A stretch of DNA of 64,000 bases from Sedimentisphaerales bacterium (lineage in GTDB: Bacteria; Planctomycetota; Phycisphaerae; Sedimentisphaerales; SM23-30): positions 96,218 through 160,217 of the forward strand of contig CAXXFK010000021.1 in assembly GCA_963663965.2 (NCBI GenBank), read 5' to 3'. Of this stretch, positions 14,901 to 34,172 are shown piece after piece. The notes beneath the pieces are model-generated. The model had not been told where the DNA came from and made no database searches. It saw only the letters and a program-made list of their open reading frames with translations. The first letter of the stretch is position 1. Every line of letters begins with the position of its first letter. A program made the position numbers and the translations under genes.

Positions 14901-17900
14901 AGCACCGTTATACGTACCGTGGCGGTATCGCTGCCGCCCTGCCCGTCACTGATGGTATAGGTGAAACTATCCGTTCCGGTATAGTCACCGTCGGGAGTGT
15001 AGGTAAAAATGCCATCCCCTTGATAGCTGACCGTGCCATGCGCGCCCTGCGCGTAATCCGCCACGGCCAGCGCATCATTGTCGATATCCGTATCATTGGC
15101 CAGAACACTGGTTGAAATGACGGTTTCATTTTGATTGGTCGTCAGCGTGTTGTCGCCGGCAACGGGAGCGTCATTGACGCCATGGACCGTGAGCGTCACC
15201 GTTGCGGTCGCGGTTGCGCCATGTCCGTCCGTAATGGTATAGGTAAAGTGATCGATCCCGTTATAATCTGAATCCGGGGTATAGGTAAAGGTGCCGTCAT
15301 TATTATTGATTAACTGACCGTGCGATGGCAGGGTAAAGTCGGTAATCCCCAGCAGATTCTCTTCTACGTCCGTATCGTTGGCCATAACAAAACCGGTCGT
15401 AACCGACCCGTCTTCATTAACGTCATAACGGTCCGCTCCGGCAACCGGCGCGTCATTGACCGACAAGACCTGGTAGGTCACGGTCGCGCTGCTGCTGCCT
15501 CCGGAACCATCCGTGATCGTATAGGAAAAACTGTCCGTACCATAAAAATTGGAATCGGGTGTGTATCGGAAAGTCCCGTCGCCCAGATGAACCAGGGTGC
15601 CATGCTCAGGCTGGTCGAAATCCACCAGACTTAAAAGATCGCCATCAACATCCACATCATTGGTAAATAGTTGGGTGTCCACCGGACCCGAATCTTCATG
15701 GAGGATGACGGTATCATCAAATGCTTCCGGCGCGTCATTGACCGCCGCCACATTCACAAGAACCGTACCGGTATGTTCGGCCCCATTTCCATCGATTATG
15801 GTGTAGGTAAAGCTATCGATCCCGTTATAATCCGCTGTGGGTGAATAACGAAACACGCCATTGCCTTCATAACGAACGACACCATGACCAGCCTCCGAAT
15901 GGCCGACCAGCACCAACTGGTCTCCATCGGCGTCCACATCATTCTCCAACACGTTTCCTGTGCTGAACGGGGTGTCTTCATTCGTCGTGTATATACTGTC
16001 GCCGGCTACCGGAGCGTCATTCACGGATCGGACTGAAACCACCACCGTGGCGGTATCGGTTCCACCCTGACCGTCGCTGACCGTATAAGTAAAACTGTCC
16101 GTGCCATAAAAATTATTTTCCGGAGTATAAAGGAATGTGCCGTCGTCATTATAGCTAACAGACCCATGAGATCCCTGCCCATAAGCCACCACGGTCAGCA
16201 CATCCCCATCGATATCCGAATCGTTTTCCAGGACCGAACCGGTTACAACCGGGGTATCTTCATCGGTGGTGACCTGATCATAATGACTGCTGGGAGCGTC
16301 ATTGACCGGCGTCACTTCAATGGTAACCGTCGTCGTGCTTTCACCGCCCACCCGGTCGATCACGGTATAGGTAAAACTGTCCGTGCCGCAATAATCCGGA
16401 TCCGGCGTATAAGTAATAATGCCATTGCCCTGGTAGAATACGGTTCCGTGCTCCGGATTGCTGATGCCATGGATCATCATGTCATCGCCATCCACTTCCG
16501 TGTCATTCGCCAGAACATTGCCCGTGACCAGCGCCTCATCTTCCTGGGTAACATAATGATCCGCTGACAATACGGGATTATCGTTCACCGAGGTGACGCT
16601 TAAATGGTACGTGGCGACACTGGTCCCACCCGCACTGTCCGATACGGTATAAGTAAAAGAATCGGAGCCATGATAATTGGAGTCAGGGGTATAAGTAAAG
16701 GTGCCATCCCCATGATAGACCACCTGGCCATGGGCCGGTTGGGCAAAATCGGCGATCGACAGGGAATCGTTATCGACATCCGTCGCGCGGTTCAAAACAT
16801 TCGTCGTCATCAACGGAGTATCTTCCAGTGTCGTGCCATTGACAGTCTGGGCAACCGGCGCGTCATTCACCGAATTGACCGTCAGATTCACCGTTGCGGT
16901 ATGAGTCCCTCCGTTCCCGTCCGAAACCGTATAGCTGAAAGCGTCATCCCCGTGGTAATCCGCGGCCGGCGTATATGTAAAGGTTCCGTCCTGGTTGTAA
17001 ACCACCTCGCCATGTGCCGCCTGACCATAATCGGTTACGGTTAAGACATCCCCATCCACATCGACATCATTCGCCAGCACATTCACCGTCACCACCGTAT
17101 CTTCATCGGTGGCAACCTGATCGGCTTGGGCAACCGGCGCGTCATTCACCGGGGTGACAGTCAGGTTCACCGTCGCGCTATGAATCCCTCCGTTCCCGTC
17201 CGAGACCGTATAGGTGAAAGCGTCATCCCCATGGTAATCCGCGGCCGGTGTATACGTAAACGTGCCGTCCTGGTTGTAAACCACCTCGCCGTGCCCGGCC
17301 TGACCATAATCGATCACCGTTAAGGTATCCCCCTCGATATCGGTATCATTGGCCAGCACATTCACCGTCACAATCGCGGTGTCTTCGTTCGTAGTGGCTT
17401 GATCGCCCTGGGCAACCGGCGCGTCATTCACCGAATTGACAGTCAGGTTCACCGTCGTGCTATGAGTCCCTCCGTTCCCGTCCGAAACCGTATAGCTGAA
17501 AGCGTCATCCCCGTGGTAATCCGCGGCCGGCGTATACGTAAAGGTTCCGTCCTGGTTGTAAACCACCTCGCCATGTGCCGCCTGACCATAATCGGTTACG
17601 GTTAAGACATCCCCATCCACATCGACATCATTCGCCAGCACATTCACCGTCACCACCGTATCTTCATCGGTGGCAACCTGATCGGCTTGGGCAACCGGCG
17701 CGTCATTCACCGGGGTGACAGTCAGGTTCACCGTCGCGCTATGAGTCCCTCCGTTCCCGTCCGAGACCGTATAGCTGAAAGCGTCATCCCCATGGTAATC
17801 CGCGGCCGGCGTATACGTGAAGGTTCCATCTTCATGACAGGCCAGATCGCCATGGTCGGGTTGGGTATAATCCGTAATCGTCAGACTATCCCCGTCGGCA

Positions 17901-18571
17901 TCGGTATCGTTAGCCAATACATTCAGATGAACCGAAACCGTATCTTCCGTCACATTGAAATGATCATCCAGGCTGACGGGATCTGCATTATGATCGCCGG
18001 TAAGAATTGTTTCAATACCGCTGTATTCTATTCTGACAGAACGCCCTTCACCCAGAGCAACCGTGAGTACCGATCCGGTGTCATCGATCTGGCCAGAGGA
18101 AAATTCCGACAGATCGATGGTATCCTGCCCGGCGCCTCCCTCGATGGTGATCGTATCGCCATCTTGCGCCCCTGTGATATAAAATAAGTCATCCTGCTCC
18201 CCGCCATCCAGATAATCATTGCCGCCGCCACTGATCAGAATATCGTTATGGAGACCGCCGTAAAGGGCATCATCCCCGATGCCGCCGTTTAGAATATCGT
18301 CCTGATGTTCACCGTAAAGGATATCGTTGCCATCGCCGCCGTTGAGTATATCGGCCCCCATATCGCCAAACAGGATATCGTCGCCTCCCAGCGCGTCGAC
18401 CAGATCATTATCATGCCCGCCATAAAACAGTTCACTTCCATCGGTGGGGCCATTAATCGCTTCCCCGGTGTCGGCATCCACCCAGGTGGCGGACAGCATG
18501 ATACGAGGCTCAAGAGCGGTTACTTGAATACGTTTTTGATTATCGGATGCTTTATCTTTCATGATCCTCAA
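8989..18571 (-). CDS. Giant cadherin-like (tandem-95/Ig) repeat adhesin with N-terminal LEPR-xLL motif and RTX-like Ca2+ repeats, and a C-terminal PKD-like domain; split by a +1 frameshift near 11908
   Basis: ORFs 11873..18571 and 8989..11805 join if one base near 11906-11910 is removed. LEPRIMLSA, GGxGxD repeats, 29 NDAP-type ~94-aa repeats counted. Confidence 0.88.
11270..12190. repeat. Intragenic direct repeat, offset 558/559 bp
   Basis: 11281 matches 11839 (offset 558); 11519 matches 12078 (offset 559). Confidence 0.8.
16850..17826. repeat. Near-identical intragenic direct repeat, offset 561 bp
   Basis: cttcatcggtggcaacctgatcggcttgggcaaccggcgcg at 17101 and 17662; encoded repeat peptides are almost identical. 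Confidence 0.9.
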
Positions 18572-18955: not shown

Positions 18956-20278
18956 ATGAACAACAACAAACTCAGTTCCAGCCTCGAAGACTACCTTGAA
19001 ACCATCTACCGGCTCTGCCAGGATGATGACACCGCCAACGCCAACCAGATCGCCCAGACCCTCAATGTCAGCAAAAGCTCCGTCACCTGGGCCCTCAACC
19101 AGCTCTCCGAAAAAGGCCACATCCAGTACACACCATACGAACCCATCCGCCTCACCGATGCCGGCCGTCAGGAAGCCCGCCGCCTGCTCAACCGCCACCT
19201 GCTCATCAAAGACTTTCTCCAGCGCATCCTCGGCATCGATGAAAATCTCGCCGAAGAAAACGCCTGCAAAATGGAACATGTCATGGACCGCGATGTCCTG
19301 GAACGCATGGGCCGCTTCTCCCAATTCATCGACGCCTGCCCCCGCGCCGGCCAGGAATGGCTCAACAGTTTCCGTTTCCAGTGCGAAGAAGGCCGCCTCC
19401 CCGAAAAATGCCCCGAATGCATCCGGCAGATCAATATCAATCAGCCACCAACTGTCTCAGATAACAATGAGACATCCACCCTGCCAGAACCACTCCCCAA
19501 ACAAACCAAAGACCGCGATCACCTCCTGATCGACCGCCTCAAAGTCATCCTCGCCGATCAGGGCGAACCACTCACCGATCAGCAAATAATAATAGCAGAA
19601 TCATTTATGAATGATGAGCGCCACCTCACCCTCGACGAACTCCTCCAGAAAACTCACCTGTTCGATAGCACCATCACCCCCAACGATATCCAGACCGTTC
19701 TCGATCTGCTCTGCGAATACCGCCTCGCCCGGGAAGCCCGTTTCGGCGACCAGATTATCTACGAACATTTCCATCCCGAATCCCACCACGACCACTTTTA
19801 CTGCCTCCAGTGCGGCGCTATCGAAGAGTTTTTCGATCCCCGCATCGAATCACTCCAAAACGAAAACGCCCGCAACAGCTCATTCCGACCCCTGCAACAT
19901 ACCCTCAACATCATGGGCGTCTGCTCTCAGTGCCTCCAGCTCGAATCTCAGAGCCGCACCCTCGCCCAGTGCCGCCAGGGCGAACGGGTTCGCATCGCCC
20001 GCCTGCTCGGCGACCGCGCCACCCAAGGCCAACTGGTCGCCATGGGACTCAACCGCGGCGCCCAGATCGAAATTCTCAACGACAACTGCGTCAACGGCGG
20101 TATGATCCTGCTGGTCCACGGCACCCGCCTGATGCTCGACAAGTCCATGATCCAGCAAATACGCATCCGGGCCGCCCGCCCCGGCGATCCCATACTCTCC
20201 GGCGGCCCCTCCCTGCGCCGCCGCCATCGCCACCAGGCCGACCGCCCCGGCCATTGCGACGAAGGCTTCCACTGGTAA
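18956..20278 (+). CDS. Metal-dependent regulator: DtxR/MntR + Fur + FeoA fusion
   Basis: EDYLETIY...SKSSVT...RH...ACKMEH (DtxR); HHDHFYCLQC...EF...GVCSQC (Fur); LAQCRQGERVRI...LVAMGL (FeoA). Confidence 0.85.
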   Translation: MNNNKLSSSLEDYLETIYRLCQDDDTANANQIAQTLNVSKSSVTWALNQLSEKGHIQYTPYEPIRLTDAGRQEARRLLNRHLLIKDFLQRILGIDENLAEENACKMEHVMDRDVLERMGRFSQFIDACPRAGQEWLNSFRFQCEEGRLPEKCPECIRQININQPPTVSDNNETSTLPEPLPKQTKDRDHLLIDRLKVILADQGEPLTDQQIIIAESFMNDERHLTLDELLQKTHLFDSTITPNDIQTVLDLLCEYRLAREARFGDQIIYEHFHPESHHDHFYCLQCGAIEEFFDPRIESLQNENARNSSFRPLQHTLNIMGVCSQCLQLESQSRTLAQCRQGERVRIARLLGDRATQGQLVAMGLNRGAQIEILNDNCVNGGMILLVHGTRLMLDKSMIQQIRIRAARPGDPILSGGPSLRRRHRHQADRPGHCDEGFHW

Positions 20279-21737: not shown

Positions 21738-21852
21738 CCAGGCCCCTGGCCTTCGTGTAGCGCCGCAGGCGCTCTTCGTGAAGCCGCAGGCGCTTCGTGG
21801 TTCAATCGGCTGTTTTTTTGCCTTTTTGCCTTTCGCCTTCGTGGCTTCGTGT
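21738..21852. repeat. Intergenic CTTCGTG short-repeat/hairpin element
   Basis: Five CTTCGTG copies (21751, 21774, 21793, 21837, 21845) and hairpin agcgcc-gca-ggcgct. Confidence 0.65.
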
Positions 21853-21897
21853 GAACTTTTTTTAATTAACGTTACAACCCAATAACCCGGTACCATT

Positions 21898-22944
21898 ATG
21901 ACCCAGCGATTCCGCGACAATATCGAAAACATGGCCGGCTACACCCCCGGGTTCCAGCCCGACGATCCCGCCGCCATCAAAATCAATACCAACGAAAATC
22001 CCTACCCGCCCTCACCGCGCGTCTTCGATGCCCTGCGCAACCTGACCGCCCTGGACCTCTGCCGCTACCCCAGCAGTATGTGGAAAACCTTTCGCGCTAC
22101 CGCCGCCCGGATCTATCACGTCAGCCCGGACATGATCGCCTGCGGTAACGGCGGCGATGAACTGCTCGCTTATCTGGTACGCTGCTGCTGCGATACCAAC
22201 CGTCCGCTGGCCTATCCCGTGCCCACCTACACACTATATCCAACCCTGGCCGAAATCCAGAACTGCCCCACCATCGAAATCCCCTTCAATCCCGATTTCT
22301 CCATTCCAGAGGCCCTGGCCCACACCAACGCACCGCTCACCATCCTCTGCAATCCCAACGCCCCCACCGCCACCTTCGTCCCGCCGGCCGAAATCGAAAA
22401 ACTGGCCCGTCAGCTCAGCGGCATCCTCCTGGTCGATGAAGCCTACGTCGATTTCGCCGAAGACAACTGCCTCGACCTGGCCCGCCGGCTCGACAACGTC
22501 GTCCTGCTCCGCAGCATGAGCAAAAGCTATTCGCTCGCCGGCCTTCGTTTCGGCTACCTGATCGGCGCCCCCGCCATCATCGAAGCCGTTGTCAAAATCA
22601 AAGACTCCTACAACGTCAACGCCGCCACCCAGGCCGCCGCCGTCGCCGCTCTCTCCGATCAGGACTACTTCTACACCACCGTCGCCCGGATCAAACAACA
22701 ACGACGGCGACTCACCATCGCACTCCGCCAACTCGGCTTCACCGTCGGCGACAGCCACACCAACTTCCTGCTGGCCACCGTCCCGCCTCAGACCCAGGCC
22801 CGGACCATCCACCAGCAGTTGGCCCAATACAATATCTTTATTCGATTTTTCAACCAACCCGGCCTGCTCGACAAACTGCGCATCTCCATCGGCTCCGCCG
22901 AACAGATGGATGCCCTCATCCAGGCCCTCACCGAAATCGTTTAG
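21898..22944 (+). CDS. hisC: Histidinol-phosphate aminotransferase
   Basis: NTNENPYPPS, GNGGDE, CNPNAPT, VDEAYVDF, RSMSKSYSLAGLRFG. Confidence 0.96.
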   Translation: MTQRFRDNIENMAGYTPGFQPDDPAAIKINTNENPYPPSPRVFDALRNLTALDLCRYPSSMWKTFRATAARIYHVSPDMIACGNGGDELLAYLVRCCCDTNRPLAYPVPTYTLYPTLAEIQNCPTIEIPFNPDFSIPEALAHTNAPLTILCNPNAPTATFVPPAEIEKLARQLSGILLVDEAYVDFAEDNCLDLARRLDNVVLLRSMSKSYSLAGLRFGYLIGAPAIIEAVVKIKDSYNVNAATQAAAVAALSDQDYFYTTVARIKQQRRRLTIALRQLGFTVGDSHTNFLLATVPPQTQARTIHQQLAQYNIFIRFFNQPGLLDKLRISIGSAEQMDALIQALTEIV

Positions 22945-22950
22945 ACGTAC

Positions 22951-22975
22951 GGAGTACACGCTTCAGCGTGTTTTT
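22951..22975 (+). repeat. REP-like hairpin or terminator between hisC and hisB
   Basis: GGAGT-acacgct-tc-agcgtgt followed by a T-run. Confidence 0.5.
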
Positions 22976-23051
22976 AAAATAATTATCGCGCAGCGATACC
23001 TTAAAAATTCCCGCAGGATCGAAAAACAGCGCAGCTAAAGGACCTCCATAA

Positions 23052-23639
23052 ATGACACAACGCACCAGTACCATCGAACGCACCACCAAAGAAACCTCGA
23101 TCCGCCTCACCCTCAATCTGGACGGCGGCGATTACCAGATCGAAACGGGTGTCGGTTTCTTCGACCACATGCTCACCCACATCGCCAAACACGGCCGCTT
23201 CGGCCTGACCGTCGCCGCCCAGGGTGACCTGCACGTCGATGACCATCACACCGTCGAAGACGTCGCCATCTGCCTCGGCCAGGCCTTCGATCAGGCCCTC
23301 GGCGACAAAAAAGGCATCGTTCGCTTCGGTTCCGCCACCGTCCCCATGGAAGACGCCCAGGCCCAGGTCGCCGTCGATCTGTGCGGCCGCCCCTGCTGCC
23401 TGTTCAACGTCCGCTTCACCTCCGGCAAGATCGGCCAGTTCGACGTCGAACTCGTCGAAGAGTTCATGCGCGCCTTCTCCAACAACATCCGCATGAACCT
23501 GCACATCAACGTCCCCTACGGCGCCAACAACCACCACATCGCCGAAGCCATCTTCAAGGCCCTCGGCCGCGCCCTGGCCGACGCCGTTCGCGTCGATCCC
23601 AACCGCAACGACATCCCTAGCACCAAAGGAGTCCTCTAA
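23052..23639 (+). CDS. hisB: Imidazoleglycerol-phosphate dehydratase (monofunctional)
   Basis: RTTKET, TGVGFFDHML, DDHHTVED, NNHHIAEAIFKA, PSTKG. Confidence 0.97.
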   Translation: MTQRTSTIERTTKETSIRLTLNLDGGDYQIETGVGFFDHMLTHIAKHGRFGLTVAAQGDLHVDDHHTVEDVAICLGQAFDQALGDKKGIVRFGSATVPMEDAQAQVAVDLCGRPCCLFNVRFTSGKIGQFDVELVEEFMRAFSNNIRMNLHINVPYGANNHHIAEAIFKALGRALADAVRVDPNRNDIPSTKGVL

Positions 23640-23641
23640 CC

Positions 23642-24334
23642 GTGCCGGCCGCGCCCCTGGACCACACCCTCAGCGCCCTCATCTTCGATATGGATGACAC
23701 GCTCTATCCCGAAGTCGACTATATCGTCAGCGGCTACCGGCTCATCGCCCGCCAACTGGCCCGGCCCGAAGTTGACGCCGACCAGCTCTACGACGCCCTC
23801 TGGGACACCTTCCTCAACGGCCCGCGCGACCGTGTCTTCAATATCGTCCTCGACCAGCTCGGTATCGGCGCCAACCCCCAGCTCATCGCCGAACTCGTCC
23901 AGAAATACCGCTGCCATCGCCCCGAAATCCAGCTCACCGACGACACCCGCCAACTGCTGATCGACCTGCGCCGCCGCTTCCGGCTCGGCGTCATCACCGA
24001 CGGCTACCTGCCCGCCCAGAAACTCAAGGCCCAGGCCCTCGAACTGCCCGCCCTCGTCGATCACATCATCTACACCGAAGAGCTCGGCCGCGACTGCTGG
24101 AAACCCAGCCCCCGCCCCTTCCAACTCATGAGCCAGACCCTCGGCTGCCCCCCGCAGCAATGCGCCTACATCGCCGACAACCCCGCCAAAGACTTCCTCG
24201 CCCCCAACCAGCTCGGCTGGCTCACCATCCGCCTCCGCAACGACACCCAGGTCCACACCACCAACCCCGCCCCCCCCGGCGGCAACCCAAAAATCACCAT
24301 CGCCGATCTAAATGAATTGAGAACAATGCTGTAA
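23642..24334 (+). CDS. HAD-family hydrolase/phosphatase
   Basis: FDMDDTLY motif I, ITDG, KP, YIADN..KD. Confidence 0.88.
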   Translation: MPAAPLDHTLSALIFDMDDTLYPEVDYIVSGYRLIARQLARPEVDADQLYDALWDTFLNGPRDRVFNIVLDQLGIGANPQLIAELVQKYRCHRPEIQLTDDTRQLLIDLRRRFRLGVITDGYLPAQKLKAQALELPALVDHIIYTEELGRDCWKPSPRPFQLMSQTLGCPPQQCAYIADNPAKDFLAPNQLGWLTIRLRNDTQVHTTNPAPPGGNPKITIADLNELRTML

Positions 24335-24338
24335 TCCA

Positions 24339-25463
24339 TTAATTCAGAAAACTACAAATAACCGGATACACCTTAGGCAACTGATTTTCAATATTTACTC
24401 TCTGCCTAAACATGTCATAGGTATTTCGAATTTTATTTACAATTCTTGGATCATGCAAATCCAGACGATTTAAAGCTTCTCTTAATTTACTTAAAACAGA
24501 ATCCATTCCGTATTGTTTGGCAAACGATACGGCTTTTCTTGACAATTCCTCGCCAATTAGAGCTTGAAGCATTTTTATTTCATGCTCTTCTATGACTTCG
24601 TCATCCAAAATCAAGGCTACTCCTAACCACATTACGGCCATTTCAAAATAGTTTTTTTCCATTTCTGAAAGTTTGCCATCACCCAACTCGTTAAGTCTTT
24701 CTAAAATCATATGATCGACTTCATTAAGCGATATACCCGCTATACCCTGATTAGTAAGTCTGGCATATATCGCTGTATTAGAAAATTGAATTAAGGCCCA
24801 TAGTCGTAGCGGTAGACTCGGATGAAGTTGATAAAGTTCCCATTCTTGAGAAGCCCCTTTATCCTTACGATCGAGTTGTTCAAGAAAACCTTGAATATCG
24901 GGCACAATATGCTCAGAAGATAAACCAGAGGCCATCTTTATCTTGACATTTGCGGCAATTACCAAACTTCGGGTAGCTATCAAACCTATACGATCTGCTG
25001 ATATTTCTGAGGCTCTCGAAATAGAAAGATATCTAAGCTTCTCTAATTCGTTTTTATAGTGATTCTCGCCAGACACACCAGGATGACCCAAGCCTAGATG
25101 TCCCAGCTCATGACCAATAACAAATTGTAGTTCCAATGGTTTCAAAAGATTGACTAATCCACTGGTCAACACAATCAACGGACGCTCCTTGATTCCAAAA
25201 ATCGGGGCAAAAGCATTGGGTGTAGAATCTGGAATAACATACGCCTCCGGTTCCTCCAATAATTGCAGCTGTTGATAAGTGGCCTTTAGTATGTCATGTA
25301 ATTTTGGGGTTAACCGACCTGTGACTCGAACTCCTTTTGCCCTCATTTGTGAACCGAATTCTGCCAGCCTTGCCATTGACTCAGGCTTCTCATTACATCG
25401 GTATATATCATCGCTAAATCGAACGGATTCACAGAGCTTAATAAAACTTTCTTTTTCAGACAT
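24339..25463 (-). CDS. M48-family zinc metallopeptidase with a TerB-like C-terminal segment
   Basis: PNAFA, LTSGL, EL.FVIGHELGH, E.SADR, HP...R; C-terminal DDEVIEEHE. Confidence 0.85.
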   Translation of the reverse strand: MSEKESFIKLCESVRFSDDIYRCNEKPESMARLAEFGSQMRAKGVRVTGRLTPKLHDILKATYQQLQLLEEPEAYVIPDSTPNAFAPIFGIKERPLIVLTSGLVNLLKPLELQFVIGHELGHLGLGHPGVSGENHYKNELEKLRYLSISRASEISADRIGLIATRSLVIAANVKIKMASGLSSEHIVPDIQGFLEQLDRKDKGASQEWELYQLHPSLPLRLWALIQFSNTAIYARLTNQGIAGISLNEVDHMILERLNELGDGKLSEMEKNYFEMAVMWLGVALILDDEVIEEHEIKMLQALIGEELSRKAVSFAKQYGMDSVLSKLREALNRLDLHDPRIVNKIRNTYDMFRQRVNIENQLPKVYPVICSFLN

Positions 25464-26658
25464 TTTGTAAATTGTTTTCCAATTTCTTGCGAGTTCGTGT
25501 TATTGCCTGGATTCGGAGTTCTGCTTGAGTACGCATCTTTTCTTCCTTATGATTGACTCGAGCGCGCCATTTCTTATATTCATTATTTAAAAACTGTATT
25601 TTTTCTTTTTCATCAAGGCCCGATGGCATGTCTAATAAAGCCTCGTCTGAAGACTGGTCAAACATCGAAACCGCAAAATGTTTATCTTGAAATTCTCTTG
25701 CCAATTCATCGGGAATATCCAGTATTTCTGCCAAATGTTTCAATACATCCCGCTCTGATTCCTGCACTTCTTCATCGGCAGCTATTATCCGCACGGCCAA
25801 TTCGTAAGCGGCATGTGCATCACTTTTTCCTCCAGCTTCTTTGAGTTCACTACACGCTGATTCGATGGCAACATGGCTATCTAAGGCGTTCGCCTTATGC
25901 TCGACAAGCGTTGTCTTAAGTATATTATTGACTTCATTTTTAATTCGTTCAGGGTCTTTAAGACGGGCAAATTGCTCTGCAAAATAATTGCGAATAACTG
26001 CTGTTTCGCGCTTATCGATATAGCCATCCGAAGCGCTGACAGCAATTGCGATTCTTGCAATTTTACTATTGATATCAATGCTACGCTGTTCATACTCCAT
26101 ATAACCGTATTCTTTTTGTATATAGGTACGGGTTGCAGAACCAGCCTTTATAATTCGATCCGAATCGCCTTCAGTGACGGCTACATAAATTTTTAGTTTT
26201 CGTTCTCCTCTTTTGGGCATAATCAATGCCTCGGGAGGAAACGCAATAACCGGCATATCTTCAAACGAAGTGATTAAGTATGGCATTTTACTTTCATAAT
26301 GACCACTAAAAAAACCGTGTTCATTAGCCAGATCCGGAATTGTACATAAAACGGGTAATTTTTCATCTTCATCGGAGTCACTGATATCTATTAAATAAAA
26401 TTGGATTTGGCAAGGATAGTTTTGGGATGGCACCAAACAGGTACCACTTATAGTTACTTTATGACAAGGCAATTTCTCCCCATCTTTAGTTTCAATACTG
26501 CTTTCGAACAGCTTGACTTTGAGATCATTATCCAATTCTTTTTTTAAATCTAATAATTTGGAATTGGCTTCCTGCTTTGTTTTCTCATCTTTGGAATCTT
26601 TAACCGCAGAATAAATACAAAATATTACGAAAAGCACTATAAAAATTACCCATCCCAT
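25456..26658 (-). CDS. DjlA-like membrane protein: TM + TerB-like domain + degenerate J-like C-terminus
   Basis: N-terminal TM; ASDGYIDKRE and AADEEVQESE TerB motifs; helical C-terminus without HPD. Confidence 0.7.
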   Translation of the reverse strand: MGWVIFIVLFVIFCIYSAVKDSKDEKTKQEANSKLLDLKKELDNDLKVKLFESSIETKDGEKLPCHKVTISGTCLVPSQNYPCQIQFYLIDISDSDEDEKLPVLCTIPDLANEHGFFSGHYESKMPYLITSFEDMPVIAFPPEALIMPKRGERKLKIYVAVTEGDSDRIIKAGSATRTYIQKEYGYMEYEQRSIDINSKIARIAIAVSASDGYIDKRETAVIRNYFAEQFARLKDPERIKNEVNNILKTTLVEHKANALDSHVAIESACSELKEAGGKSDAHAAYELAVRIIAADEEVQESERDVLKHLAEILDIPDELAREFQDKHFAVSMFDQSSDEALLDMPSGLDEKEKIQFLNNEYKKWRARVNHKEEKMRTQAELRIQAITRTRKKLENNLQNV

Positions 26659-28202
26659 TATTCTATCTCCAAGTCATCAAAATCAGCTTCTACCTCTTCA
26701 ACGAGTTGTTGAGCTCGTAAAGCGTCAGCAGATTCAAGCGTTTTTATCTTACCGGTTTCGACATCTTTAAATTCAAAGTTCATTTGACCATTGACATCAT
26801 AGGAATAGGTCACCTCAATTGGACATCCTGGTGGCCTGCCTTCGGGAAGTTCCAAAGATTCATCTATCAGTATATTGACAAATTCCGGATCTGGATCTTC
26901 CCCTTGAGTAACACTACAGTCAATTGCAGTCTGATTATGGTATCGTGTGTAATAGGTTTTACTTTTCTTGGCTGGTATTGGTGTATTTTTAGATATAATA
27001 ATATCGTTTCTAAGCATATCTCTGCCACCTACATCACAAACCACATATGTCCCAAGGCTGTGTGCAGTCACATCCTGTAATTTTGTACGACTGATGATGG
27101 CTGCTGCCTGTGGAGTCAATTCAGTAAGTCCTTTCTGATGCATCAAAAAACCGGCTTTGATAGCTGCTCCCAAGGCTACCGCCTCATCCGGATTTACATA
27201 GCTGATTGGCTCCTTGCCAAATTTGGCTTTCAGCATTTGTTGGACAGCCGGGATACGACTGGAACCGCCCACCAGCAGCACTTCATCAATGCCGCCCGGT
27301 TCTAAACTGGCAGCTTCCAGGGCATTTTCTACTAACATCTGTGTTCTCATAACCTCATCCGATATCAGTTTTTCAAAAGTGGCTCGCTGGACATCGACGA
27401 CAATCATATTCGCACCCCAATTGGGGCGACATTGTTCCTGACTTGTTTTAGATAGCCCTTTTTTGACAGTTTCGCTTAGATCTATTAGATTTAGCCAGTC
27501 ACCATTTTTTTCATCTTCTTTAATAGAGATATTTTTTTCTTCCAGAAATTTTTGAGTCAGAAACCGAGCTAACCGAATATCCAAATCGCATCCGCCTAAT
27601 TTATGATCCCCTTCTGAGGCGATTATTTTTATATTATGAGCATCCTCAACTTGGACGATAGATACATCAAACGTCCCACCCCCAAAATCATAAACCAATA
27701 TAGTTCCTGGTCGCCCTCCAGTAGAAGCATAGGTCAATGCCGCAGCCGTTGGTTCATTAATTATTTCAAGTAATTCGAGACCAGCAAGTCTAGCCGCATT
27801 CATTGTTGCCACCCGCCTCGTTTCATCGAAATACGCTGGTACCGTAACAACCGCATATTTTATGTGCCCCAGCCTCGCCTCTGCATCTTTTCTTAGCTTT
27901 TTTAATATGATACTGCTTAACTCAATCGCTGAATATTGCTTGCTATTTACGGCAAACCGCCAATCTGGATCGCCCATTTGGCGCTTAATCCATTGAACAA
28001 CCCGATCTGGCTGATGCCCGGCACATCGCTTCGCATGTTCACCAACGATGGTTGTAATATCATCCTGAAAAAAAATCGCGGATCGCGTAATACGTTCACC
28101 TTCAGCATTCGGCACAATTTCCGGACGTCCGGCCGCATTAATCACGGCCAGTGCTGAATAGGTGGTCCCCAAATCAATACCAATACATGGATACGAACTC
28201 AT
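26658..28202 (-). CDS. Hsp70-family protein (514 aa, no C-terminal lid)
   Basis: IGIDLGTT, TVPAYF, NEPTAAA, DFGGGTFDVS, VGGSSRIP, NPDEAVALGAA. Confidence 0.95.
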   Translation of the reverse strand: MSSYPCIGIDLGTTYSALAVINAAGRPEIVPNAEGERITRSAIFFQDDITTIVGEHAKRCAGHQPDRVVQWIKRQMGDPDWRFAVNSKQYSAIELSSIILKKLRKDAEARLGHIKYAVVTVPAYFDETRRVATMNAARLAGLELLEIINEPTAAALTYASTGGRPGTILVYDFGGGTFDVSIVQVEDAHNIKIIASEGDHKLGGCDLDIRLARFLTQKFLEEKNISIKEDEKNGDWLNLIDLSETVKKGLSKTSQEQCRPNWGANMIVVDVQRATFEKLISDEVMRTQMLVENALEAASLEPGGIDEVLLVGGSSRIPAVQQMLKAKFGKEPISYVNPDEAVALGAAIKAGFLMHQKGLTELTPQAAAIISRTKLQDVTAHSLGTYVVCDVGGRDMLRNDIIISKNTPIPAKKSKTYYTRYHNQTAIDCSVTQGEDPDPEFVNILIDESLELPEGRPPGCPIEVTYSYDVNGQMNFEFKDVETGKIKTLESADALRAQQLVEEVEADFDDLEIE

Positions 28203-28222
28203 ACCTGATACTCCTAAATGTA

Positions 28223-28924
28223 TTATTTTCGATAAACGGTAACCCGCGCAGGACGTAATACCTTTTCCTCGATTTCACTAACCTGTTCAATATAACCGCA
28301 CTTATCAACATGCGCTATGGTATCCGGCACACGCCAGAACCGGGCAGGTTCGGCTTTAAAGGATTCCATATAGTTCATGTCAAATACCTCGCCAGGCTGA
28401 GGTTCAATAACATCGATATCATGCTTTGCTAATATCTCTCTTACGAATTTTAATAACTCAATATTAAAATTATCTGGCTCGACAACCGCCGCTTCCATGG
28501 CTTTTACTCTTCGAAACAGCAGGTCGTGTAATTCAAAAAAAGATTCTAAGACATCCATTTTCCCTTGCCTGATATAATCACTCTCTTGACGAACCAATTT
28601 ATCTTTAGCCAAATGGACAAATCGGTTGATTTCATCCATTTTATAATCCATACCCAAAACCACCTGTTTCAATTCCATAAATACTTCGCCAGCCGCTTTT
28701 TTATTTTTAACCGCTTCCTCCGTATTTGCATGATTTGCTTTGATATTTGTTCCCACATCTGCTTTTCCACTAGAAGAAGTGTCGTTGATTTCTTGTTCAC
28801 TCGATAGTGGGGCAGATTCCATATTCCCCTCCTGTGATTCTATAGGACTTTGTTTGGTAAGCTCGCCCTCACTATTATCATTTTCACTGCTATTTTTATT
28901 TTCAAGATTTATATCACTGGCCAT
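28223..28924 (-). CDS. GrpE-like nucleotide exchange factor
   Basis: Acidic disordered N-terminus, long helix, PGEVFD...GY...VLRPARVTV. Start at ATG 28924 is inferred. Confidence 0.75.
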   Translation of the reverse strand: MASDINLENKNSSENDNSEGELTKQSPIESQEGNMESAPLSSEQEINDTSSSGKADVGTNIKANHANTEEAVKNKKAAGEVFMELKQVVLGMDYKMDEINRFVHLAKDKLVRQESDYIRQGKMDVLESFFELHDLLFRRVKAMEAAVVEPDNFNIELLKFVREILAKHDIDVIEPQPGEVFDMNYMESFKAEPARFWRVPDTIAHVDKCGYIEQVSEIEEKVLRPARVTVYRK

Positions 28925-29704
28925 GTCGTCATCTCTCTGTATTTCAAACACATTTTGAAACCTCGTTATCATCGAATAACACAATTGACTCGCAGGCATT
29001 TAAAGCTACGAGTTGATGAACTCAATAAATTGCATTTCTTATCCCTAAAATGTTAACAGCCCGTTTTTGCTGCTTTTACTAAACACAAAACCTAGATAAT
29101 CATCACACATATAATCTCCTTAACAAATAACATAGCAAGAAGATAAAATACGATGTAGAATTAATTATGTATTTCGAGGTCAAGCCAGACAATTATTTTA
29201 CTATACACAATATCCAGAAAAATATAAAGAAATTTATTCCTAATAATTTCATATTTTCTCCATAATAATACTATGTTTTTTCAATATATGGTTTTAATGA
29301 CTTTAAGTCACATTCGGCAATATATAACACAATATAAAATAAAGCCTTACCGAACCAGCACACCTGTCTAACTCATAGGATTAGCATGTCCGATATATGC
29401 AACAATCTAACTTTATTTCATTGTTAATCACCAAAATTTTGTATTAACCAACTACGATATTTCTTGCTCACTACCCTGCGCCGAACGCTGGCAGCAAGCC
29501 CTGACACCCTGACATAAATCGCCAATCCGGGCCCAACCTCCCAATGCCATCATTCTTCACATCATCCTCAAACATCCCCCCAAAAAAAACAACAACCCAG
29601 GCCACACCATAAAGGCGGCCCGGGTCATTGTTTCCATAAATTGGTTTCCTCTCAATACTTCGGCATGGTAACAAATATATAAATACCTGACGGATACATG
29701 ATCA

Positions 29705-31342
29705 TCAATCCCGCAACCATCTCTCAGAAAGAATGGCATGATCGAACATATCCACAACACCATCAAGATTAAAATCGGACTTTAAGCGATAGCCGCTTGT
29801 TCCCTCCATCTGCCATTCCCGGATAAACAGATCCAGATCCCGCCCATCGACTACCGCGTCGCAGTTACCGTCCGCCACCAGCGGATTCTCCCACCACAGC
29901 ATCGCGTAACCGCCCCCCACCGGCAGATACCAGTAATCGTTATTCCCGTCACTGCTGTCACCCACAAAATCGAACGCCAGGTTCGCCGCGTCCTGCATCT
30001 GGGCGGTCGTCAATCCCACTCCCGCTTCACTCACCGAAATCCCCGCCACCTGATAATCCCAGTAGCATCCGGTAATAATATTATAACTGCCATAAGACCG
30101 CCCTACAAATCCGCCGATCTGCTTCACATCATACTGCCCGGTTACGACACAAGCCGCATAACAATCCACCAGATCCCCGCGGTCATTATAACCGATCCCG
30201 CCGCCAATCTTCTCCGCCGCGTAGCTGGCGTTCACACTGCCAGTCGCCCGGCACCTGCTGATCAGACACTGGTTCACCCCGGCAATCCCACCCAGGCGGT
30301 CCGCGCCATATTTTCCATAAATATCGATCTGCGTACTGCAATCGTAAACAAATCCTTCATTTTCATTCACTCCCACAACCCCGCCGGCGGTATAATCCCA
30401 CACGGTAATCATCCCGCGGCTATAACACCGCCTGATAATCCCATTACTCAAGCCGGCAATCCCCCCCGCTTTTTCATAACATTCCACCGTCACATCGCTG
30501 TAACAATCCAGCGCCGTGCTATAGCGCGCCAGTGACCCCACAATCCCGCCGGCCCGTTCTTTGGTCCCGCCGTTGACAGTTCCCTCAAATTGACAGTTCA
30601 GGATATCGTTGTAATCGTTCGCCTCGCCAACAATACCCCCACAAAAACCATTCGACGCATTAACCGTCCCGGCCGCCACGCAACCGGCCACTTCTCCAAA
30701 TTCCATATGCCCGATCACGCCCCCGACATTCTGTTTGCCATCAATAGTCACCGCCGCCGTACACCCGACCAGGGCCCCGCCATTACTAAATCCGGCCACC
30801 CCGCCTACACTGGGCGCATAACCCGCATCCACCACCCCGCTCACATGACAGTTGACAATCTGCCCTCCCAGGTAATTACTGCCATACCCGCAAGCCCCGG
30901 CCACACCACCAATCCTCGCGCCGGTATAAATGGAATAGATGGACACGTCCGTCAAATTCAGATTCGCGACAACCCCGCCACTGCCTATAATCCCAAACAA
31001 ACCCACATTATCCGCATTGCTCTTCATATGGATGCCAAGGTTCCGGATCGTATAACCGTTGCCGTCGAACATCCCCGTAAACACATCCGGTGTACCCGGC
31101 GCGATCACCGCGTTGGAAAAAGTCCCATCACTGTTATCGCCCTGACCACTCAGATCCAGATCACTGACCAGCTTGAAACAGGCGTCATAATCCTGCGTCT
31201 GAGCCGCCAGCAACATCAGATCCGCTTCCGATCCAATCAGATAGGGATTGCCGACGCTGCCGCTCCCCCCGGAATACCGGGCCGGCAAACTGCTCGCCAG
31301 AATCAAAACTACCGCTACAATATTTGCTATAGTAATCCGCAT
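29705..31342 (-). CDS. Secreted GLUG-motif protein with a C-terminal dockerin-like duplicated EF-hand
   Basis: Signal peptide, YSGGSG...PYLI, FDGNGY, many xGGIxG repeats, D.N.DG.VD..D...W motifs. Confidence 0.82.
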   Translation of the reverse strand: MRITIANIVAVVLILASSLPARYSGGSGSVGNPYLIGSEADLMLLAAQTQDYDACFKLVSDLDLSGQGDNSDGTFSNAVIAPGTPDVFTGMFDGNGYTIRNLGIHMKSNADNVGLFGIIGSGGVVANLNLTDVSIYSIYTGARIGGVAGACGYGSNYLGGQIVNCHVSGVVDAGYAPSVGGVAGFSNGGALVGCTAAVTIDGKQNVGGVIGHMEFGEVAGCVAAGTVNASNGFCGGIVGEANDYNDILNCQFEGTVNGGTKERAGGIVGSLARYSTALDCYSDVTVECYEKAGGIAGLSNGIIRRCYSRGMITVWDYTAGGVVGVNENEGFVYDCSTQIDIYGKYGADRLGGIAGVNQCLISRCRATGSVNASYAAEKIGGGIGYNDRGDLVDCYAACVVTGQYDVKQIGGFVGRSYGSYNIITGCYWDYQVAGISVSEAGVGLTTAQMQDAANLAFDFVGDSSDGNNDYWYLPVGGGYAMLWWENPLVADGNCDAVVDGRDLDLFIREWQMEGTSGYRLKSDFNLDGVVDMFDHAILSERWLRD

Positions 31343-31908
31343 TGCTTAACTCCTGATGACTATAATCCATTATTCATACTCAATTCACGCTTGGTATTAG
31401 CTTGCAAGCTAACGAATCCAGAGGATACCGGAAAATTTCACCCGATCGCCATAACTCAAATGTCGCTGCTAAACATCTCAGACAACAATCTTGCCATCCA
31501 GCCGGGCATAAATACTGTTAACAATATCAAATAGCCATGAATCATTTGGATTCACTGTTAAATACACCCAACCCCAATCGATCTTGCGCTTAAAATTTAA
31601 CAAATAACCATTTTTTCCTCTACCCGGCCATTACAGAAAAAATCATTACCCACCCCCCACAGACCCTCTACAGAAAACCAGACCATTAATTCTTTTAAAA
31701 ACAATACGTTATAAACCATAACGGCAATATCCCACCCGGACGAATCCACAAACAATACCGACACAGAAATAAAAACACCCCACACCCGTTTAACTATCAA
31801 CGGCATTAACAGCTCTGTTCATTGGTATCATGGTTTTGCAGGATCGATATCGATATTCTGCGCCAATGATTTCTCTGAAAATCCAATCCGGCCACCAAAG
31901 GAATTATC

Positions 31909-34172
31909 ATGAAAACGCTTTTTCACTACTGCCCTTTCTGGGCATTCCTGATAATAACCGGCATCTTACCGATATCAGACACCGGGCACACGACCCTCTA
32001 TGCCGATATGACCATCGATTCCCCCGTAACCTTTCCAGAAAAGGGCCCTTTGCCCTCCCGGTATCCGCCCGATGTAAAAAACCAGAACTTTGATGCTGGC
32101 GAACCCGATTATTATCTCTTTTCCAGTCCGGTTCGATCCCTGCAACAAATCAAAACCATACAAACCGCCATGCCGCCGGGCTATTTCACGCCGCTAACGA
32201 ATAACTGGCAATTCCTGCCCCAGACTCATCGCATCCTCACCGAAGGGGGCAACCTGCATATCATGGCCATCGGCGATAGTATCGTCAACGACACCATGCG
32301 CAGCGGTTGGGTCGCGCTCCTGCAGGAAGCCTGTCCCAAAGCCCAGATCACCACCACCGTCTATGTTCGCGGCAGCGGCGGCTGTCAGCACTTCAAAGAA
32401 AACAACCGGATCGTCAACCAGGTCATTCCGCGCCGCCCCGACCTGGTCTTTCTCGGCGGTATCAGCCAGGCCGATATCGATAGCATCGCCACCGTAATCG
32501 ACCAGTTGCGTACCGCCCTGCCCACCGTCGAAATCCTGCTGGGTACCGGCTCCTTTGGCGCTGCCGATCCACGCGTCCCGGCCGAACTGGCCCGCGCCCA
32601 TTATTCCGGAACCGGCGACTATGGCCGCGCCCTGCGCAAACTTGCCGCTCGCAAACAAACAGCTTTTCTCGATCTCACCACTCCCTGGGCCCAGTACCTC
32701 AACTCATCCGGCCAACATCCCCACCGGTTCTATCGCGATATCGTCCACGCCAACGAGTTCGGCGAACAGGTACTCGCCAGAATCTTTATGAGCTTCTGGC
32801 AACCGCAAGCCCCCGCCAGCACAAAAACCCTTGCGGCTCTTACCGGATAACCCGCGGTATTTCACCGCCGACGGCATCCATGCCTTATACCTGACCGGAT
32901 CGCACACCTGGCACAATTTACAGGATGGCGGCCTGACCAACCCTCCCCAGCCATTCGATTATGATGAGTTTCTGGATTTTCTCACCCGGGCCAACCACAA
33001 CTTCTTCCGGCTCTGGGCCTGGGAAAGCGACCGAGAAACCTGGGATACCCAACCCCGCTGGGTCCATCCCCTGCCCTACCTGCGAACCGGCCCGGCCCAG
33101 ACACCCGACGGCAAGTTGCGTTTCGATCTGAACCGGTTCGATCCCGATTATTTCCAAAGACTGCGCGACCGGGTCGAAGCCGCCCGGCAGCGCGGCTTCT
33201 ATGTCGGCATCATGCTGTTTCAGGGCTTCAGTGTCGCAAAAAAAATCGCCCGGCGCCAAAGGCTCTCCCTGGCCGGGCCACCCCTATCACCGCGACAACA
33301 ATATCAACGGCATCGATGGCGATCCTGATAACGATGGCAACGGTTATGAAGTTCACACCCTGACCATCCCCGCTATTACCGCGTTACAGGAAGCCTATAT
33401 CCGCAAGGTCATCGAAACCGTTGGCGACTTTGACAATATCATCTACGAGATTTCCAACGAAAGCCACGGCAACTCAACCGACTGGCAGTTTCATATGATC
33501 AACTTTATCAAAAAGTGCGAACATTCCCGCCCCATGCGGCATCCCGTCTGGATGACCTTTCAATACGACAAAACCTTCGGGCCGGGCACCAACCAGACCT
33601 TGTTCGACAGCCCCGCTGAAGCCATTTCACCCAATTCGATCATAGGCAGGAAAGAAGTCTACCGATCCAACCCGCCCGCGGCCGATGGCTCCAAAGTCAT
33701 TTTGCTGGATACCGATCATCTCTGGGGTATTGGCGGCGATGCCGTCTGGGTCTGGAAAGCGTTTACCCGCGGTATGAATCCGCTCTTCATGGACCCCTCT
33801 AAAAGAGAAGCGCCTCTGGATCAATTCGGCCTCAGTTCCAAATGGGATGGCATCCGGGCCGCTATGGGTATCACCCTGAAACTGGCTGAACGTATCGATC
33901 TGGCCACCCTCACCCCACAACCCGGCCTGGCCGACACCGGATATTGCCTGGCTTCCCCCGGCCGGAAATACCTGGTTTATCTACCTGACGGTGGCGAAGC
34001 CACCCTGAATCTAACTGGTATAAACGGCGAGTTCAACGTCCAGTGGGTTCATCCAACCCAGGGCACTCTCTCCTCTATTACGACCATCCCCGGCGATGCC
34101 AGACAAACGCTCAAAGCCCCTTACCCCGGCCACGCCGCAGTCTATGTATGGACCTCATCCCCAAACGATTGA
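31909..34172 (+). CDS. SGNH hydrolase domain followed by a DUF4038/GH140-like glycoside hydrolase with a collagen-binding-like C-terminus; probably one gene with two +1 frameshifts
   Basis: GDSI and D.VH (SGNH); PDNPRYF, RFDL.RFDP.YF.RL, YEISNE. Frames join at A-runs near 32823-32827 and 33238-33245. Confidence 0.65.

Follow-up and report, generated by a model that had tools for sequence, protein, structure and literature searches.

A recurrent four-gene operon of a Sedimentisphaerales bacterium encodes a lidless Hsp70 with a GrpE-family protein, a membrane-anchored TerB-containing helper and an M48 protease

A stretch of 64,000 nucleotides from a Sedimentisphaerales bacterium (assembly GCA_963663965.2, contig CAXXFK010000021.1, positions 96,218 to 160,217; the whole stretch is referred to below as the window, and its own numbering from 1 is used) contains an operon of four genes for a GrpE-family protein, an Hsp70 without a lid, a membrane-anchored helper and a zinc metalloprotease of the M48 family. 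This gene set is found again and again across many environmental bacteria. It is a genuine and conserved version, apparently not yet described, of the theme of a dedicated Hsp70 with its own J partner and exchange factor; what sets it apart is the unusual J interface and the added protease. Judged from the encoded proteins, the products of the operon probably capture certain proteins, which may be the cell's own or viral, and cleave them at the cell membrane. The reading we prefer, and hold with middling confidence, is that of a dedicated chaperone machine, tethered to the membrane, which captures and cuts its clients, couples to its J partner in a non-canonical way and serves the triage of membrane proteins. 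The four genes and the region preceding them are as follows.

28925-29704, minus strand: AT-rich intergenic region upstream of the operon, GC 0.355, likely promoter region
28223-28924, minus strand: GrpE-family gene, 233 aa (an ATG further upstream, at 28999, would give 258 aa)
26658-28202, minus strand: lidless Hsp70 gene, 514 aa
25456-26658, minus strand: membrane-anchored helper gene, 400 aa
24339-25463, minus strand: M48 zinc metalloprotease gene, 374 aa

The four genes are co-oriented and closely coupled, as an earlier note made from the sequence alone had described them, and its further remark that they are richer in AT than the adjacent his genes is also borne out. The GrpE and Hsp70 genes are separated by a 20-bp gap containing AGGAG, the Hsp70 and helper genes overlap in TAATG at 26658, and the helper and protease genes share 8 bp at 25456-25463. 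The four genes have a GC content of 0.38-0.43 and a third-position GC (GC3) of 0.32-0.35, whereas the adjacent hisD, hisC, hisB and HAD genes have 0.61-0.64 and 0.77-0.86, respectively. The 4.6-kb block as a whole, with a GC content of 0.40 against 0.486 for the genome, lies at the 3rd percentile among genome windows of equal size. Behind the his operon, 4 bp separate the end of the four-gene block from the convergent HAD gene, and at this HAD/M48 junction GC falls from 0.68 to 0.34. Public contigs match hisC-HAD-M48-helper (21757-25928) and helper-Hsp70-GrpE-next gene (26308-30778) with zero mismatched letters, and support the assembly across both borders, with the reservation that the underlying runs may be the source sample and hence not independent. 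No Rfam RNA was found in 23000-32000 and no convincing terminal repeats around the operon, and the 23 promoter-like matches over 24000-29800 are not clearly above the 15.5 ± 3.9 obtained in shuffles.

The recurrence of the gene set was established from relatives of the protease. A metagenome scan confirmed 215 of these, of which the best 80 were used, with the duplicate loci L056 and L158 removed before counting. Among the 65 loci of this set that could be tested for an upstream helper (at least 400 bp upstream), the helper gene lies directly upstream in 50, followed by the Hsp70 gene in 32/32 and then by the GrpE gene in 25/27; all four genes are visible in 26 of the best 80 loci. The synteny that the earlier note had proposed to check is thus co-conserved. 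Of the 15 loci with no helper directly upstream, one (L062) is rearranged and several belong to a sister protease clade paired with a YbjN-like gene. With genomes added, the four-gene loci number 31 and span a locus GC of 0.27-0.71; together with the window they form 26 clusters at 90% and 10 at 50% Hsp70 identity. A pattern scan of genome contigs yielded 3 loci only, which leaves the distribution over named phyla thinly covered; cluster look-ups for 20 proteins produced one taxon name, and a second profile search for homologues returned 7 proteins. The closest named homologues of both helper and protease come from Sedimentisphaerales.

A shorter form of the operon is the commoner one in the host's class, where the helper profile matches 34 of 301 genomes, four of them weakly and through the TerB part alone; by family, the matches include 23/23 genomes of f2 and 5/10 of f4. 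Nineteen of the 20 loci fetched from this class consist of GrpE, Hsp70 and helper genes at native GC, and one has all four genes; because 19 of the 20 have no protease gene, the protease is not obligatory. In f2 the three-gene form is present in all 23 genomes, with Hsp70 identity of about 72%. The host genome itself carries a second, three-gene copy at native GC behind a PilM-like gene (contig C36, L001 7216-12432), which encodes a GrpE with a transmembrane (TM) segment, a lidless Hsp70 and an Ig/TerB/J-like helper without one; on the opposite strand, some 1.5 kb past this copy, is a gene for a membrane M48 protein. The distribution is otherwise patchy. The 18 other genomes of the host's family (completeness 62-99%) gave no match, and at the site downstream of hisB-HAD the operon is absent from all 14 family relatives fetched; since those with sequence there bear differing genes, the insertion site is variable. 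The protease profile matches 23 of 401 genomes of the phylum, with the four-gene operon in 3 of 11 loci fetched, and in another phylum the four-gene form occurs in 1 of 301 genomes, on a 4.8-kb contig of a record titled Dehalococcoidia that could be misbinned. In a quick Hsp70 tree the window copy is nearer to a metagenome locus and to this Dehalococcoidia-titled record than to the C36 paralogue, and the protease-less Hsp70s form one branch nested among the protease-bearing ones, which suggests, subject to rooting, that the three-gene form arose by loss of the protease. Taken together, the patchy relatives, the tree placement and the AT-rich composition indicate that the window copy was gained horizontally, and the best explanation of the whole distribution is a four-gene cassette that would move horizontally and a three-gene core that would have settled vertically in one planctomycete lineage.

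The Hsp70 is recognized by Pfam PF00012 with 362 bits over model positions 2-497 of 599, and scores below the NCBIfam DnaK cut-offs (380 vs 648 bits and 371 vs 823) and also under the HscA cut-off. On alignment with E. coli DnaK the equivalents of D8, K70, E171, D194 and T199 are intact in the window protein, and the ATPase residues are present in every aligned operon Hsp70, with D8 alone missing from two 5'-truncated open reading frames; with this catalytic set in place the operon Hsp70 should be an active ATPase. The α-helical lid is absent from all operon Hsp70s, which have 5-26 residues after alignment column 505 as against 134 in E. coli DnaK; the window protein, with 514 aa compared with about 640 for canonical DnaK, has a tail of 20. 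The β-sandwich of the substrate-binding domain is present after the linker, and its pocket columns are mostly hydrophobic. The linker is altered to TKLQDV in the window protein and is preceded by some 10-13 additional residues; across the operon Hsp70s it alternates hydrophobic and polar residues in place of VLLL, with polar residues at two of the four positions. A hydrophobic-x-hydrophobic-(mostly acidic) motif closes the C-terminus in 49 of 53 proteins. Arg 167 of DnaK, which contacts the Asp of the HPD motif of J proteins (PMC8215388), corresponds to Glu 146 in the window protein, and over 53 operon Hsp70s this column holds G in 17, Y in 8, N in 7, R in 6, A in 5, E in 4 and other residues in 6.

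In a quick tree of 62 rows, which carries a long-branch warning, has one reference each for HscA and HscC and excludes E. coli YegD, 57 operon Hsp70s fall on one side and DnaK, HscA and HscC on the other, with a support of 99 in the Shimodaira-Hasegawa-like approximate likelihood-ratio test (SH-aLRT). The Hsp70 therefore does not group with vertically inherited DnaK; such a grouping was the outcome that the earlier note had named as counting against its proposal. An ordinary duplicate of dnaK, grpE and djlA was rejected as well: the genome has a canonical DnaK on contig C24 and dnaJ-grpE elsewhere, and the operon Hsp70 is 35% identical to this DnaK and groups apart. Separately from the operon, contig C28 of the host genome encodes another divergent Hsp70 of 553 aa (L003 6699-8360) at the end of a contractile-injection or type VI-like cluster, adjoining a reverse transcriptase and a transposase (labels by sequence reading).

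The GrpE-family protein matches Pfam PF01025 with 37.9 bits (cut-off 25.8; E 1.9e-9), scores far below the NCBIfam GrpE equivalog cut-offs, and is 39% identical to the genome's canonical GrpE over 69 aa. By hydropathy the window copy is soluble, without a membrane anchor, and an N-terminal hydrophobic stretch is present in 36 of 48 relatives. Its family membership suggests that it would act as a private nucleotide-exchange factor.

The helper, for which the AlphaFold2 model has a predicted local distance difference test score (pLDDT) of 94, comprises a TM helix (residues 2-20), an immunoglobulin (Ig)-like β-sandwich (45-182), a TerB domain (186-335) and a J-like helical tail (338-399). The earlier note had called it a TM-TerB-J-like protein; the TM helix and the TerB domain stand, while the Ig-like domain and the decay of the HPD motif had been missed. 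The TerB domain scores 26.7 bits in Pfam (cut-off 24.4) and superimposes on 2ou3 in VIA-align with Z 13.5 and an rmsd of 4.4 over 144 aligned residues; the Ig-like domain reaches a Z of about 8. The tail aligns with Tim16 (2guz_B; Z 7.2, rmsd 2.6, 61 residues) among many similar-scoring helical matches, a Z in the range of chance for small helical domains, and a Foldseek search with the whole model gave no match at E ≤0.001. The helper family comprises 640 clusters at 50% identity; among 113 aligned members, 88 have an N-terminal membrane anchor by hydropathy and 104 match Pfam TerB.

The J-like tail is the best conserved part of the helper, with a mean identity of 35% as against 21-22% for the Ig-like and TerB domains. 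It begins in the manner of a J domain with LLGI (G in 49 of 53), its helix II ends in T/N-H-x-D, the J-domain helix pattern fits the model, and the tail has the consensus EYxKWNxR; equivalents of K363, W364, R367, A379 and R390 are kept in 49-51 of 53 sequences. In the window helper the HPD motif has decayed to HKE (N369-H370-K371-E372). Among 171 parsable tails of 195 family members, HPD is retained in 23 and H-x-D in 79, and HPD is found in 10 of 53 helpers paired with an Hsp70. We read the tail as J-derived and functional, though with neither HPD nor a Pfam DnaJ match it does not qualify as that of a J protein. The HKE of the window helper together with Glu 146 of its Hsp70 suggested compensatory co-evolution of the HPD Asp with Arg 167, and this idea was unsupported over the 53 pairs.

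Modelling of pairs, which the earlier note had proposed, gave weak support for binding of the J-like tail to the operon Hsp70. The complex of ATP-bound Hsp70 with the helper scored 0.58 against 0.02 for the best control; the runs had 78% or more of their contacts in common, and the partner pLDDT was 80 or higher. In the calibration of this score 116 of 157 solved complexes and 2 of 215 mismatches pass the mark. The support is weak because the band at or below 0.60, where the model falls, holds few solved complexes (18 of 157) and both of the passing mismatches.

Other arrangements of helper genes were also observed. Further TerB-containing helper paralogues lie upstream of the four-gene operon in L112 (1-2309) and L125 (2-1387). 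In L176 and L177 short helpers of 229-236 aa, with TerB and J-like tail only, follow the Hsp70 gene, and a distant M48-like gene is next in L176.

The protease matches Pfam PF01435 (Peptidase_M48) with 66.4 bits, which confirms the family named in the earlier note, where the C-terminal domain had gone unnoticed. The features that define M48, namely HExxH, a third-ligand Glu and an HPX4R plug (PMC7950410), are found as H118-E-L-G-H122, E153 and H214-P-x4-R220, together with D157, and these motifs are intact in 58 of 59 operon M48s. In VIA-align the top four matches are 3c37 (Z 10.6), ZMPSTE24 (Z 10.0), BepA (Z 9.9) and Ste24p. Hydropathy reveals no TM segment, and the protein reads as soluble. 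The M48 proteases of E. coli are described as acting in membrane-protein quality control and as held shut by the HPX4R plug, whose His in BepA is the fourth zinc ligand, so that the enzyme stays shut until the plug moves (PMC7950410, PMC13655028). Since the same plug is present, the operon protease is probably latent, by analogy with BepA. The C-terminal domain (about 260-374) reads as a degenerate, TerB-like one. A profile of Pfam-TerB-positive M48 tails matches 35 of 40 close tails compared with 1 of 40 when reversed (hhalign 87%); the tail itself has no direct Pfam TerB match, no TerB chain is among the 50 fold rows listed, and direct profile comparison with the helper TerB is weak (E 0.0034 and 0.016). 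The relationship of the tail to TerB is thus convincing only through a chain of similarity by way of more distant M48s.

A sister clade of M48-TerB proteins (L068, L069, L071, L072, L073, L078 and L094) is found with no helper and with a YbjN-like gene upstream instead (Atlas 0.91-0.93, TM score 0.66/0.83); a STAND-like AAA+TPR protein stands beside it in some loci. This pair is possibly a second chaperone-fed protease module.

With these parts, the preferred capture-and-cut machine would operate as follows. The operon Hsp70 would work at the cytoplasmic face of the inner membrane, apart from the DnaK-DnaJ-GrpE set of the genome, with the helper inserted by its N-terminal helix in a cytoplasmic topology that we assume from the precedent of DjlA. 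The Ig-like and TerB domains, as the most variable parts, may choose the client or the site. The J-like tail would dock on ATP-bound Hsp70 by its conserved EYxKWNxR helix rather than by HPD, as the complex model weakly suggests, and may stimulate the ATPase. The Hsp70 would then hydrolyse ATP with its intact catalytic residues and, being lidless, would keep only a short hold on an unfolded stretch; rather than refolding it, the Hsp70 would hold it, pull on it or sense it until reset by the operon GrpE. In the four-gene form the plug-inhibited M48 enzyme, probably recruited through its TerB-like tail, would cut the client presented to it. The likeliest clients would be stalled, misassembled or damaged membrane or envelope proteins. 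In outline this agrees with the earlier note, which had proposed that a divergent Hsp70 cycle, complete in itself and anchored at the membrane, is coupled to a zinc protease, and the evidence supports that proposal with the amendment that the protease is optional (absent from 19 of 20 host-class loci). A more far-reaching version, which we regard as doubtful, is that the HPD-less J-like domain drives the lidless Hsp70 through a new EYxKWNxR interface, that the membrane-tethered Hsp70 cycle directly licenses the M48 enzyme, and that the operon is a fourth, widespread class of bacterial Hsp70 machine whose mobile four-gene form senses foreign proteins in phage infection. If that were true, it would amount to a bacterial extract-and-degrade motor, as if the import motor of mitochondria were combined with a protease of the Ste24 type.

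Several observations weigh against the preferred reading, most of them concerning its J coupling. The assignment of the tail as J-like is weak by sequence alone (hhalign probability 12%, E 0.0024): the Pfam DnaJ model has no match in the window helper and matches 1 of 113 aligned members (E 0.0011), and, compared with DnaJ, helix II has some five residues more. All J-Hsp70 pairs that have been tested are reported to depend on HPD (PMC8215388); the tail may therefore only tether the Hsp70 and not stimulate it. All 10 HPD-bearing helpers partner Hsp70s without Arg or Lys at position 167, and over the 53 pairs loss of HPD and loss of R167 are not linked, so that there is no simple compensation between them. 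The pass of the Hsp70-helper model may stem from likeness to solved DnaK-J structures. The patchy distribution and the defence neighbours, finally, are also compatible with a defence role.

Such a role is the main rival, possible but tentative. The four-gene form would then be an anti-phage system in which an unfolded or incoming protein of the phage is sensed by the lidless Hsp70 under the guidance of the helper. The latent M48 enzyme, switched on in this way, would either destroy that protein or abort infection by cleaving a host target, which may be the membrane helper itself. In favour of this are the AT-rich insertion at a variable site and the patchiness (0/18 host-family genomes, 3/11 fetched loci of the 401-genome phylum sample, 1/301 in the other phylum). 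Lidless DnaK-like domains are described in antiviral EACC1-protease modules (PMC12642450), HSP70 with GrpE in predicted GAP1-N2 conflict systems (PMC7159879), and the sister protease clade has a YbjN-like gene as its partner, joined in some loci by a STAND-like ATPase. Flanking genes were compared with PADLOC-DB 2.0, a match being E ≤1e-8 and a strong match covering about half of the model or more at E <1e-15. Of the 127 protein clusters flanking loci that have both helper and protease, 16 match, 10 of them strongly and in 7 of 39 flanked loci, as against 4 of 122 with 1-2 strong beside the protease-less form (Fisher p 0.010-0.035 for the strong matches), and restriction-modification, McrBC, HNH and candidate genes directly adjoin the operon in L117, L119, L127 and L059. 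The enrichment near defence genes that the earlier note had proposed to look for is therefore there, but it is modest evidence, because the criteria were set post hoc, some matches are to candidate systems, the neighbours are clustered and the control comes from one order; 32 of the 39 flanked loci, and the window with its his and GLUG neighbours, have no strong defence neighbour, and most operon loci lie amid metabolic or unknown genes. A known defence system was rejected, since the core genes gave only weak partial matches in PADLOC-DB 2.0 (PDC-M34B, E 0.0017; capP, E 0.039). The core encodes no nuclease, NADase or pore effector and no recognizable toxic effector, a plasmid search with the helper and a viral-contig search with the protease gave no match, and in one family 23/23 genomes retain the three-gene core, as they would a housekeeping operon. 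The defence role raised in the earlier note is thus not established.

Two further explanations were weighed. A stress response of the TerB type is unlikely; in it, a small molecule or metal ion would bind to the TerB domains of the helper and the protease and thereby activate both the chaperone cycle and proteolysis. Such a response would account for the two TerB-related domains of the cassette and the TerB paralogues upstream in L112 and L125, TerB being described as a predicted ligand-binding domain (PMC7824862, 10.64898/2026.10.19.760177), and E. coli HscC with DjlB/DjlC is reported to confer cadmium resistance (PMC8215388). The helper TerB, however, is poorly conserved (22%) and that of the protease degenerate, and no ter-operon gene was seen among annotated flanking proteins, where no search was aimed at TerC/TerD models. 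Equally improbable is a chaperone that helps to assemble or take apart one specific membrane machine, for instance a type II secretion system or a type IV pilus, the protease being an optional accessory for clean-up. A PilB/GspE ATPase with an MshEN domain is directly upstream in 3 of 19 protease-less loci (L038, L041, L044) and a PilM-like gene precedes the second copy of the host genome, but an unrelated 620-aa membrane protein is upstream in 8 of the 19 and the others vary, and there is no pilus gene beside the window copy and none named in the annotated flanks of four-gene loci. The protein of about 620 aa encoded upstream of the GrpE-like gene in these eight f2 loci (L045-L050, L053, L054) has a hydrophobic N-terminal third, a helical tail and a weak YfiO match.

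Among known systems, E. coli DjlA is closest to the helper, with the same TM-TerB-J layout within an Hsp70 and GrpE cycle, and the helper profile matches the TerB region of DjlA (E 1.5e-6). DjlA, however, has HPD and works with the housekeeping DnaK, whereas the helper has an added Ig-like domain and no HPD, and the operon brings a private lidless Hsp70, a private and often membrane-anchored GrpE and a co-encoded protease. The mitochondrial Tim16 (Pam16), like the helper tail, is J-like and without HPD; it belongs to an Hsp70 motor tethered to the membrane, in which it works beside the HPD-bearing Tim14, whereas the operon has no HPD-bearing J gene. BepA, HtpX and Ste24/ZMPSTE24 share the fold and the plug motif of the operon M48, and to our knowledge the known M48 proteases are not encoded alongside a private Hsp70 set.

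HscC with DjlB/DjlC and HscA with HscB are also specialized Hsp70s beside their own J partners, of sporadic occurrence, and HscC is described as membrane-linked (PMC8215388); both keep the lid region, are described as not using GrpE and have conventional J partners, and the operon Hsp70s group apart from them. The EACC1-protease modules resemble the operon in tying a lidless Hsp70 to a protease and are proposed to sense misfolded or phage proteins, but their protease is a cysteine protease and their effector the pore-forming EACC1, and the available text mentions no GrpE, TerB or J-like partner (PMC12642450); the operon, for its part, has no EACC1-like gene. The GAP1-N2 theme also has a private HSP70 and GrpE, with a β-sandwich (fibronectin type III, FNIII) protein fused to DnaJ, yet it is centred on GTPase and GAP1, occurs mainly in actinobacteria and firmicutes, and has no TerB or M48 mentioned in the part of the source at hand (PMC7159879). 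GTPase and GAP1 genes do not adjoin the window operon, whose neighbours beyond the his genes are a HAD hydrolase and a GLUG-repeat/dockerin protein. A literature search on the combination or its parts, with gene-neighbourhood tables in supplements and subscription papers outside its scope, found no description of the operon; the earlier note had not recognized it as a named system either, and no named system matched in PADLOC or in this search. The family may have been overlooked because a large census of J proteins excluded sequences without HPD (PMC10410713).

Bacterial Hsp70s are usually divided into the three types DnaK, HscA and HscC, and HPD is held to be indispensable for J action (PMC8215388). 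Against this background the operon represents a separate, widespread Hsp70 lineage that appears to have kept its ATPase and lost the lid and R167, with a J-like tail that seems to be under selection despite the decay of HPD, and it offers a natural test of Hsp70 activation without HPD. The fixed link to a putatively latent M48 enzyme suggests a direct hand-over from chaperone to protease at the membrane, and if phage proteins were the clients, bacterial immunity would gain a branch that senses through a chaperone. The small size of all four proteins puts reconstitution within reach.

Two other genes of the window lie beyond the operon and its immediate neighbours. The minus-strand gene at 11873-18571 encodes a protein of 2232 aa in which we read cadherin-like repeats in tandem, RTX-like repeats and, at the N-terminus, a LEPR motif. 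Upstream of hisD, the plus-strand gene at 18956-20278 encodes a 440-aa protein, presumably a metal regulator made of fused DtxR-like, Fur-like and FeoA-like parts.

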